A DNA stretch of 64,000 nucleotides, from assembly GCF_003334815.1 (NCBI RefSeq), contig NZ_QOWO01000024.1; one strand, given 5' to 3'. This document shows positions 5,011-13,264 of this stretch, in pieces. The stretch is from Escherichia coli. GTDB taxonomy: Bacteria; Pseudomonadota; Gammaproteobacteria; Enterobacterales; Enterobacteriaceae. The notes beneath the pieces are model-generated. The model was not told where the DNA came from. It saw nothing but the letters and a program-made list of their open reading frames with translations, and did no database searches. Each line of letters begins with the position of its first letter. Positions within the stretch are counted from its first letter, which is position 1. Position numbers and translations under genes: made by a program.

Positions 5011-5390
5011 CGTTGTTTTGTCGTGGGCAGGAAAATCAGCATCAACCCGCTCATAATACAGGCTACTCCCAGTAGTGCTTTCAGCGAAAAAGTCCCTTCC
5101 CAGCCGGGAAGTACCATTGAAGCAATCCATACCAGCACATAACTCATACTGAGCAAGGCATAGGCTTTGCTTAGCGCAAGTTTATGAAGCGTTTTATACC
5201 AACAAAAAACGGAAAGCAGATAACCCAGCAGCCCGAGTAACAGTATCCGGGCATCCAGGCCAAAAGCTAACAGAGCCGCGATAAAATCCCATAAGTGCGT
5301 CATCGGCGGCAGATGACTCGCCGCAAAACCCAGGCTTAATTGCGCAACTGAGGCAATAATGACGCTGAATAATCCCCACATCAGGCCCAT
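5004..5390 (-). CDS. arnF: Undecaprenyl-phosphate-aminoarabinose flippase subunit ArnF
   Basis: 128-aa small multi-TM protein (start [10 protein letters not shown]) taken from an internal start of the 222-aa track ORF; last gene of the arn operon; start codon overlaps the arnE stop by 1 nt. Confidence 0.85.
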
Positions 5391-11214: not shown

Positions 11215-12354
11215 TTATTGTCCTGCGAGTTGCTGAAGGGCTGTGATGACATGGTCGGCATCGGCGGTAGTCATATCCGGGAACAGCGGCAAAGAACAGA
11301 TGCGTTCGCTATTCCATTCGGTATTCGGTAACGACAGCGTGGGAAAACGCTCGCGATAATATTTTTGTGTGTGAGCGGCGCGGAAATGTAACCCGGTACC
11401 AATGCCTCTTTCTTTTAACGCTTCCATCAACGCATCGCGACTGATACCACAACGTTGTTCATCGACACGAATAATAAACAGATGCCAGGCGTGAACGTGC
11501 GGCCAGGCGGGAAGGCTTAATGGCTGAAAGGGGAGAGCTGCCAGTGCTTGCTGATATTGCTGGGCAATTTCGCGCCGACGGGTGTTGAGGTGCTCTAATT
11601 TGACTAACTGTGTCAGGGCAATCGCGGCGTTAATATCGGTCAGATTGTACTTATAGCCCGGTGTTAAGACTTCAGCCTGCGGTGCACGGCCCCAGGTTTG
11701 TCTGTCATAGGCATCGACACCCAGACCGTGAAATTTCAGCATCCGTAGCTGGCGGGCAAGGTTTTCATTATCAGTTACAATCAGGCCACCTTCAGCACAG
11801 GTAATATTTTTAATGGCATGAAATGAAAAAATAGCGGTACCTTTTGCGCCAATATGTCGCCCTTTGTAATACGTACCGACGGCATGGGCAGCATCTTCGA
11901 TAACTGCGATGCCGTAACGTTCGCCAATGGCGCGAATGGCGTCAATATCTGCTGGCGCACCGGCATAATGCACCGGAATGATGGCTTTAGTGCGTGGCGT
12001 AATGGCTGACTCGATAGCTTCAGGCGTGACCATCAGCGTATCGCGGTCGACATCCACCATTACCGGCGTTGCACCCAACAAGGAAATCATATTGAGGGTT
12101 GAAACCCAGGTCAGGGAAGGCGTAATCACTTCATCGCCCTTGCCAATTTTCAACGCCATTAGCGTGATATGCATTCCGGCGGTGGCTGAACTGACCGCGA
12201 TGGCATGCTGATTTCCCGTCAACTGGCAAAAAGCTTGCTCAAGCGCCTGATTCTTCGGACCGGTTGTGATCCAACCGGATTCGAGAACCTCTTTAACTGC
12301 AGCGAGTTCCTCCACGCCCATTGCTGGTCGCGAAAAAGGCAAAAATTCTGACAT
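11215..12354 (-). CDS. arnB: UDP-4-amino-4-deoxy-L-arabinose--oxoglutarate aminotransferase (PLP-dependent, DegT family)
   Basis: Track ORF 11215-12387 (390 aa); start set at the ATG giving [13 protein letters not shown] (379 aa), which matches the ArnB N-terminus as I recall it; two alternative in-frame ATGs lie upstream. Confidence 0.9.
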
Positions 12355-12452
12355 TGCTTTTCCTTCCGCCATTGAATACCTGTCCACTTATATTTGCTAT
12401 AAAGAGTGTTGTGTATATTTTGCCATTTGGAGCGAAATTTTAAGGATAGAAT

Positions 12453-12469
12453 ATTAACTTAACCTTAAG
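12453..12469 (-). promoter_or_regulatory. PmrA/BasR box in the arnB promoter
   Basis: Minus strand reads CTTAAG-gttaa-GTTAAT (YTTAAK-N5-YTTAAK direct repeat), about 100 bp upstream of the arnB start, in the arnB/ais divergent intergenic region. Confidence 0.7.
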
Positions 12470-12661
12470 AAACTAATATTAGACGTAAATATTGAAATTT
12501 TTATATTTTTTCTTATTTAGGCTTTGCATTTGGCAAAATTTTGAGGCATTTTGCCGACATCGTAGGATTTTTAATATTACACCAACTGCGAATTATCGCC
12601 AGAAATGTAGCTCAATTTCACGGTAATTGTCTGGTTGCGCTTGTCTATAGGTGGAGTTTAC

Positions 12662-13264
12662 GTGTTAGCTTTTTGCCGCTCTTCGTTGAAGTCAAAAAAA
12701 TATATCATCATTTTACTGGCGCTCGCTGCAATTGCCGGACTGGGTACTCATGCCGCCTGGAGTAGCAATGGTTTGCCACGTATCGACAATAAAACACTGG
12801 CCAGACTGGCACAGCAGCACCCGGTTGTCGTTTTGTTTCGTCATGCTGAACGTTGCGACCGTTCAACCAATCAATGCTTGTCAGATAAAACAGGTATTAC
12901 GGTTAAAGGTACCCAGGATGCCCGTGAACTGGGCAACGCTTTTAGTGCTGATATCCCTGATTTCGATCTTTATTCCAGTAATACCGTCCGGACCATTCAG
13001 TCGGCTACCTGGTTTTCAGCGGGTAAAAAATTGACGGTAGATAAACGACTTCTTCAGTGCGGTAATGAGATTTATAGTGCAATTAAGGACTTACAAAGCA
13101 AAGCGCCTGATAAAAATATCGTTATTTTCACCCATAATCATTGCCTGACATATATTGCTAAAGATAAGCGTGACGCGACATTTAAACCTGATTATCTGGA
13201 TGGTTTAGTCATGCATGTGGAAAAAGGCAAAGTTTATCTGGATGGGGAATTCGTTAACCACTAA
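12662..13264 (+). CDS. ais: Lipopolysaccharide core heptose(II)-phosphate phosphatase Ais (histidine phosphatase family)
   Basis: RHAER histidine-phosphatase motif and signal peptide; start set at in-frame GTG 12662 to give the 200-aa MLAFCRSS... form (track ORF begins at ATG 12635); divergent from arnB. Confidence 0.85.

Follow-up and report, generated by a model that had tools for sequence, protein, structure and literature searches.

Can one regulator-binding site serve two promoters that face away from each other? The interval between arnB and ais in Escherichia coli raises this question. The arn operon, which places aminoarabinose onto lipid A, is a main chromosomal route to polymyxin and colistin tolerance, and the dependence of its promoter on BasR/PmrA, a regulator that senses iron and acid, is textbook material. 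The divergent gene ais (pmrG) is treated as PmrA-activated in E. coli as well, and in iron-adapted E. coli B it shifts along with arn, eptA, pmrR and basR. The original prediction, made from the letters of this DNA, recognized a PmrA/BasR direct repeat on the arnB strand and proposed that ais either shares this site or uses a weaker one. Having compared the interval with orthologous loci, we consider it very probable, taking the explanation as a whole, that this 17-bp repeat is the BasR operator of the arnBCADTEF promoter, with ais most likely sharing it.

Results and discussion

The arnB–ais region

Positions refer to the window, the whole 64-kb stretch of E. coli DNA that was analyzed; a window position w corresponds to NC_000913.3 position 2365910 + (12372 - w). 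Window positions 12000–13000 are 100% identical to E. coli K-12 MG1655, and of 5426 complete E. coli genomes, 5419 contain the region. The gene identities and divergent layout were correctly recognized at the outset: arnB (11215–12354, 379 aa in the PGAP annotation, with the start that our comparison favors) lies on the minus strand, as do arnC and arnA, and ais (12662–13264, GTG start, 200 aa) lies on the plus strand. The interval that separates them (12355–12661) is AT-rich, as had been stated, with 32.9% G+C versus 51.7% in the whole window. No Rfam covariance model matched positions 12200–12800 up to E = 1.

Some E. coli genomes carry rearrangements here. In strain LST200A, an IS1A element is inserted in the first codons of ais (window 12693–12702), with flanks that overlap by 10 bp, and strains CP61_Sichuan and 2017.10.01CC give an identical two-piece ais match with an annotated IS1A. 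Given these insertions, ais is knocked out in some lineages. Strain 2452 has a partial tandem duplication of the 5' part of arnB together with its promoter (window 11801–12468); one of its junctions, at 12468, cuts into the first hexamer of the box described below. The duplication leaves a truncated arnB pseudogene and could be an assembly artefact.

A single PmrA/BasR box in the interval

On the coding strand of arnB, positions 12469 down to 12453 read CTTAAG-GTTAA-GTTAAT (ATTAACTTAACCTTAAG on the plus strand; NC_000913.3 2365813–2365829), with half-site 1 at 12469–12464 and half-site 2 at 12458–12453. The direct repeat CTTAAG-N5-GTTAAT is thus present exactly as it was first described. Its distance from arnB, given earlier as about 100 bp, also holds: the 3' end of the box lies 98 nt from the ATG at 12354 and 80 nt from the ATG at 12372, and the box begins 115 nt upstream of the former. 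The verified PmrA half-sites of Salmonella are CTTAAG and NTTAAT, 5 bp apart (PMC3973317), and the E. coli box fits this consensus, CTTAAG-N5-NTTAAT, exactly.

This strict pattern occurs once in the 64-kb window, against 0.01 matches expected, while the looser pattern YTTAAK-N5-YTTAAK with one mismatch occurs at chance level (three matches versus 2.76 expected). We also built a weight matrix from 33 distinct orthologous boxes of species outside Escherichia. The scan of both strands for which the original prediction had called placed the arnB box at the top with 20.2 bits, 8 bits ahead of the next best match in the 64 kb (12.2 bits), and gave a maximum of 8.2 bits on the plus strand of the interval. 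The second-best match, CATAAACTTGCGCTAAG, is located on the minus strand at 5170–5186, toward the arn operon. Within the species, the box is unchanged in six diverse E. coli strains, and a 43-bp segment covering box and -10 was found in 5413 of 5426 E. coli genomes, of which 4197 carry it unchanged and 1216 have a single mismatch.

A repeat of this kind might be a chance match in AT-rich, possibly H-NS-bound intergenic DNA, with no regulatory role. Such a reading would suit an interval of 32.9% G+C and the chance frequency of the loose one-mismatch pattern, but it has to contend with the expectation of 0.01 for the strict pattern, with the binding of PmrA to orthologous sites and with the roughly 74 species that keep the box at a fixed spacing from a -10 hexamer while the flanking sequence diverges. 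We assign it a negligible probability, and the conservation data effectively refute it.

Architecture of the arnB promoter

The conserved spacing emerges from a comparison of 80 arnB loci, each from a different species of Enterobacterales. In about 74 of the 80 species, the arnB strand carries a box of the PmrA type at a distance of 115 to 250 nt before the start codon. Downstream of the 70 boxes that fit the strict pattern, a TANNNT hexamer starts exactly 10 bp after the box in 61 cases, and every other offset from 0 to 29 is represented by three cases at most. The corresponding 10-bp spacer in E. coli is ATTCTATCCT (12443–12452, minus strand), and it leads to a predicted -10 hexamer, TAAAAT (12437–12442, minus strand), placed from the sequence and the conserved spacing. 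With the box filling the place of a -35 hexamer, the arnB promoter has none. Transcription is predicted to start at the 7th to 9th nucleotide after the -10 (12428–12430, minus strand), downstream of the box, which spans about -39 to -23 relative to this predicted start; nothing that we found points to an arnB start on the upstream side of the box. The SMRT-Cappable-seq supplements contain no entry for arnB or ais.

In Escherichia and Citrobacter, a conserved AAATG(G/A) (12423–12428 on the minus strand, its first A at 12428) lies exactly 9 nt after the arnB -10. The motif also begins a very short ORF whose length varies (MAKYTQHSL in K-12, MK in Citrobacter). We considered a leader peptide encoded at the predicted +1, or an sRNA, and rejected both, the ORF having between 2 and 9 codons across species and Rfam giving no match; AAATG(G/A) probably belongs to the start region instead. 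A consensus promoter scan returned two matches, neither of them conserved, against 1.5 expected, which is chance level. Both were rejected as the regulated promoters: TAGACG-N16-TATATT on the plus strand (12480–12507) shares bases with a stretch of 21 bp that Escherichia sp. E1V33 has lost, and the minus-strand match (12621–12592) lies inside the ais leader.

The predicted layout resembles that of promoters activated by PhoB. There, the direct repeat of the pho box stands in for the -35 hexamer, with 10 bp between its end and the -10, an arrangement that supports class II activation. The E. coli arnB box has the same pho-box-like 10-bp spacing; the recognition sequence and the regulator differ, and a contact between BasR and sigma region 4 is hypothetical. 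Phosphorylated BasR, a response regulator of the OmpR/PhoB family, would bind as a head-to-tail dimer to the two hexamers, whose centers are 11 bp apart. Positioned in the place of the -35, 10 bp before TAAAAT, it would bring in sigma-70 RNA polymerase much as PhoB does, by class II activation, and transcription of arnB would begin near 12428–12430.

Orthologous systems provide the physical evidence. Salmonella enterica has the same gene pair in the same divergent layout, and both of its members, pbgP (pmrH/arnB) and pmrG, are PmrA-activated. The Salmonella box on the arnB strand, CTTAATGTTAATTTAAT, is followed after 10 bp by TAGGGT and differs from that of E. coli in half-site 1 (CTTAAT versus CTTAAG). 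Conservation of the PmrA motif of yfbE (arnB) among Salmonella, E. coli and Yersinia had already been reported. The pbgP box of K. pneumoniae, CTTAATATTATCCTAAG, lies in a PmrA footprint whose limits are -22 and -91, counted from the PmrA-dependent start (PMC2565834), and PmrA binds it with nM–µM affinity (PMC3973317). Like the E. coli box, PmrA box1 of K. pneumoniae (TCTTAATATTATCCTAAGC) consists of two hexamers with 5 bp between them and precedes the PmrA-dependent start, and the promoter-proximal edges nearly coincide, the footprint ending at -22 in K. pneumoniae and the box at a predicted -23 in E. coli. Raoultella loci, whose box is identical to that of K. pneumoniae, keep the 10-bp spacing as well, to TAAATT. 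Klebsiella differs from E. coli in half-site 2 (CCTAAG versus GTTAAT) and in the distance from box to start codon (about 170 bp versus about 115 bp); it has, in addition, a PhoP box and a second, PhoP-dependent start, and this PhoP box is absent in E. coli and Salmonella (PMC2565834). From these orthologous sites we infer that BasR binds the E. coli box, by analogy, and in E. coli itself the induction of a P_arnB-gfp reporter needs pmrA.

BasR may not be the sole protein that uses the box: in uropathogenic E. coli, the arn promoter region is also occupied by QseB, the paralogue closest to PmrA. A stronger version of this idea would make QseB, instead of BasR, the main user. ChIP-on-chip with QseB in UTI89 recovered the arnBCADTEF promoter region, and arnB mRNA was 2.16-fold lower in a qseB mutant; the resolution of that ChIP experiment is, however, too coarse to place QseB on the box, which matches the PmrA consensus exactly, and the P_arnB-gfp induction requires pmrA. 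QseB as the main user is therefore quite improbable. The box itself is an already known regulatory site: real, correctly read and ordinary.

The start codon of arnB

The start of arnB had been called ambiguous, with three in-frame ATGs. ATG codons are indeed found at 12354 and 12372, but the codon at 12387 is GTG. The ambiguity itself is real, as two RefSeq annotations differ, PGAP using ATG 12354 and NC_000913.3 using ATG 12372 (its position 2365910). On the minus strand, the open reading frame thus offers two alternatives to the 379-aa protein, ATG 12372 (385 aa) and GTG 12387 (390 aa), and the crystallized (PDB) constructs also use the 385-aa start.

The counterpart of ATG 12354 is conserved throughout the set of 80 species, most of which have AAGGA(A) 5–9 nt before it. 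An in-frame ATG six codons further upstream is confined to Escherichia, two Citrobacter and Salmonella. About 70 of the 80 lack such an upstream ATG or have it out of frame, their upstream frame being closed by a stop or free of start codons. Because the ATG and the AAGGA are conserved and the upstream ATG is rare, the Shine-Dalgarno sequence GAAGGA (12361–12366, minus strand) is best read as the ribosome-binding site of ATG 12354. On this comparison, ATG 12354 is likely to be the main start, and ArnB would be translated from it with GAAGGA as the ribosome-binding site.

The arnB leader of C. amalonaticus contains a repeat-like insertion of about 200 bp (about 1288–1488 of that locus) between the upstream ATG and the conserved start, a separation that also speaks for ATG 12354. 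This insertion has long terminal inverted symmetry, looks ERIC/MITE-like by eye, and pushes the box to -327.

A predicted core promoter for ais

No box facing ais is as convincing as the one facing arnB, in agreement with the original prediction: the best plus-strand score in the interval, 8.2 bits, belongs to a lone half-site at 12570–12586, and a search of 12355–12661 for a full two-hexamer repeat facing ais found none with one mismatch or fewer and none above 8.2 bits. By the same matrix, the arnB box read backwards scores 7.9 bits.

Since ais adjoins arnB in only 4 of the 80 arnB loci, we gathered further ais loci through homologues of Ais and examined 15. All 15 share a common block with the core AGGCATTTT. 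In 14 of them this block fits TTGCNT-N17-CATTTT, and the 15th has TTGCAA in place of the first hexamer. We predict that it is the ais core promoter, which in E. coli reads TTGCAT-N17-CATTTT (12524–12552, plus strand; -35 at 12524–12529, -10 at 12547–12552) and would start transcription near 12557–12559, with a leader of about 103 nt. The same type of core promoter is present in Salmonella (TTGCTT-N17-CATTTT). The E. coli sequence is conserved and sigma-70-like, and it falls below the listing threshold of the consensus scan (at least 9 of 12 hexamer matches). Sigma-54, sigma-28 and sigma-32 readings of the AGGCATTTT block, tried by eye, were rejected for a wrong spacing or a lack of conservation of the match. 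A perfect 8-bp inverted repeat, GGCAAAAT-N8-ATTTTGCC, extends over the predicted ais spacer and -10 (12532–12555); it is kept in Escherichia and C. amalonaticus and is absent in Salmonella and other Citrobacter.

Does ais share the box?

One answer to how ais responds to BasR is a weak or partial PmrA site of its own, either TTTAAT at 12570–12575 or the TTTAAG that relatives of E. coli have within the spacer between the ais -35 and -10. The former belongs to the best plus-strand matrix match in the interval (12570–12586, 8.2 bits), the latter is found in Escherichia sp., E. albertii, Salmonella and several Citrobacter, and single half-sites are bound in vitro by the C-terminal domains of PmrA (PMC3973317). 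Neither candidate, however, has a second hexamer at the 11-bp spacing. The match at 12570–12586 is not conserved outside Escherichia, and the spacer half-site, TTTAAG in Salmonella, reads TTTGAG in all six E. coli sampled and is absent in I. alba, C. tructae and C. amalonaticus. A site within the spacer or downstream of the predicted ais start would, moreover, occupy a repressing and not an activating position. We regard a separate ais site as unlikely.

Among the 15 ais loci, none has a full ais-facing box separate from the arnB box, and in C. freundii the one box fits the consensus in both directions. The comparative data are thus consistent with the first half of the earlier suggestion, that ais shares the arnB site, and stop short of proving it. 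We give somewhat better than even chances to a single box that also serves ais from upstream, with its center near -98 in E. coli, -88 in Salmonella and -77 in Escherichia sp. E1V33. The box, acting from upstream and in reverse orientation, would then put ais under BasR control as well, through its weak core promoter. An activating site near -98 in reverse orientation is unusual for ais. We also considered the box as a class II site for ais and rejected it, since no species has a TANNNT 10 bp beyond the box on the ais side.

Measured in 14 loci, the distance from the box to the ais -35 is 54, 44 or 33 bp in all but one (54 bp in E. coli versus 44 bp in Salmonella), the exception being C. tructae with 41 bp. 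These steps of 10–11 bp are suggestive of a dependence on the face of the helix, and as they represent only two or three independent indel events with one exception, they are not significant. The deletion in Escherichia sp. E1V33 removes 21 bp, or two helical turns, from the stretch that separates the box from the ais core promoter (approximately window 12490–12510).

Loci that keep ais without arnB

Six of the ais loci have no neighboring arnB, and all six keep the box at the same place. They are those of I. alba (pmrD then ais), of C. freundii, C. rodentium and two metagenomic contigs (menE then ais), and of C. tructae, in which an ArnT-like gene stands in place of arnB. The retention of box and -10 beside ais without arnB in six loci favors a shared site.

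The same loci can be read in another way. In all six, a TANNNT hexamer lies exactly 10 bp from the box and points away from ais (TAGAAT, TATATT, TAATAT, TAATAT, TAGTTT and TACTCT), and because this -10 is retained too, the box may be kept for the arnB-type promoter and not for ais. The box would then serve arnB only, and ais would answer BasR indirectly or through coupling to the divergent arnB-type transcription, by way of local negative supercoiling, instead of through a contact of BasR with polymerase at the ais promoter. Downstream of the module, nothing is conserved in the four menE–ais loci; they have no common ORF, and the transcripts pointing away from ais share no sequence. With the spacing kept and nothing downstream conserved, the promoter itself looks selected, rather than a product. 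An indirect response would also suit the weakness of the ais core promoter, whose -10 is followed in most species by a G+C-rich stretch. Against this, the loci without arn represent about three independent lineages and perhaps as few as three independent deletion events, and regulators of the OmpR family are able to activate directly from upstream in either orientation, as known from PhoP promoter architectures. A box that serves arnB only thus seems doubtful, and we continue to prefer the shared site.

The arnB-type module might, alternatively, be integral to the regulation of ais, either because its divergent firing acts through supercoiling or polymerase occupancy or because it makes a fast-evolving short transcript that has gone unrecognized; this, too, we hold to be a slim possibility. 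Transcriptionally coupled divergent promoters are known, for example ilvY–ilvC and leu-500. The arnB and ais promoters resemble them in standing back to back at a distance of about 130 bp, with a weak partner beside one that is strong when activated. This likeness bears only on the two coupling readings, and any dependence on supercoiling is hypothetical here.

Implications

Confirming the arn box adds little to what is known of BasR/PmrA regulation, and an arnB-type promoter module that is kept without arn is only a mildly new point. As a by-product, the comparison yields a precise layout for the E. coli arnB promoter (box, 10-bp spacer, -10 and predicted start), and it supports the 379-aa ArnB over the 385-aa start that is still in NC_000913.3. 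For the control of lipid A modification genes by BasR, the locus leaves a testable question: how one box would serve two divergent promoters.
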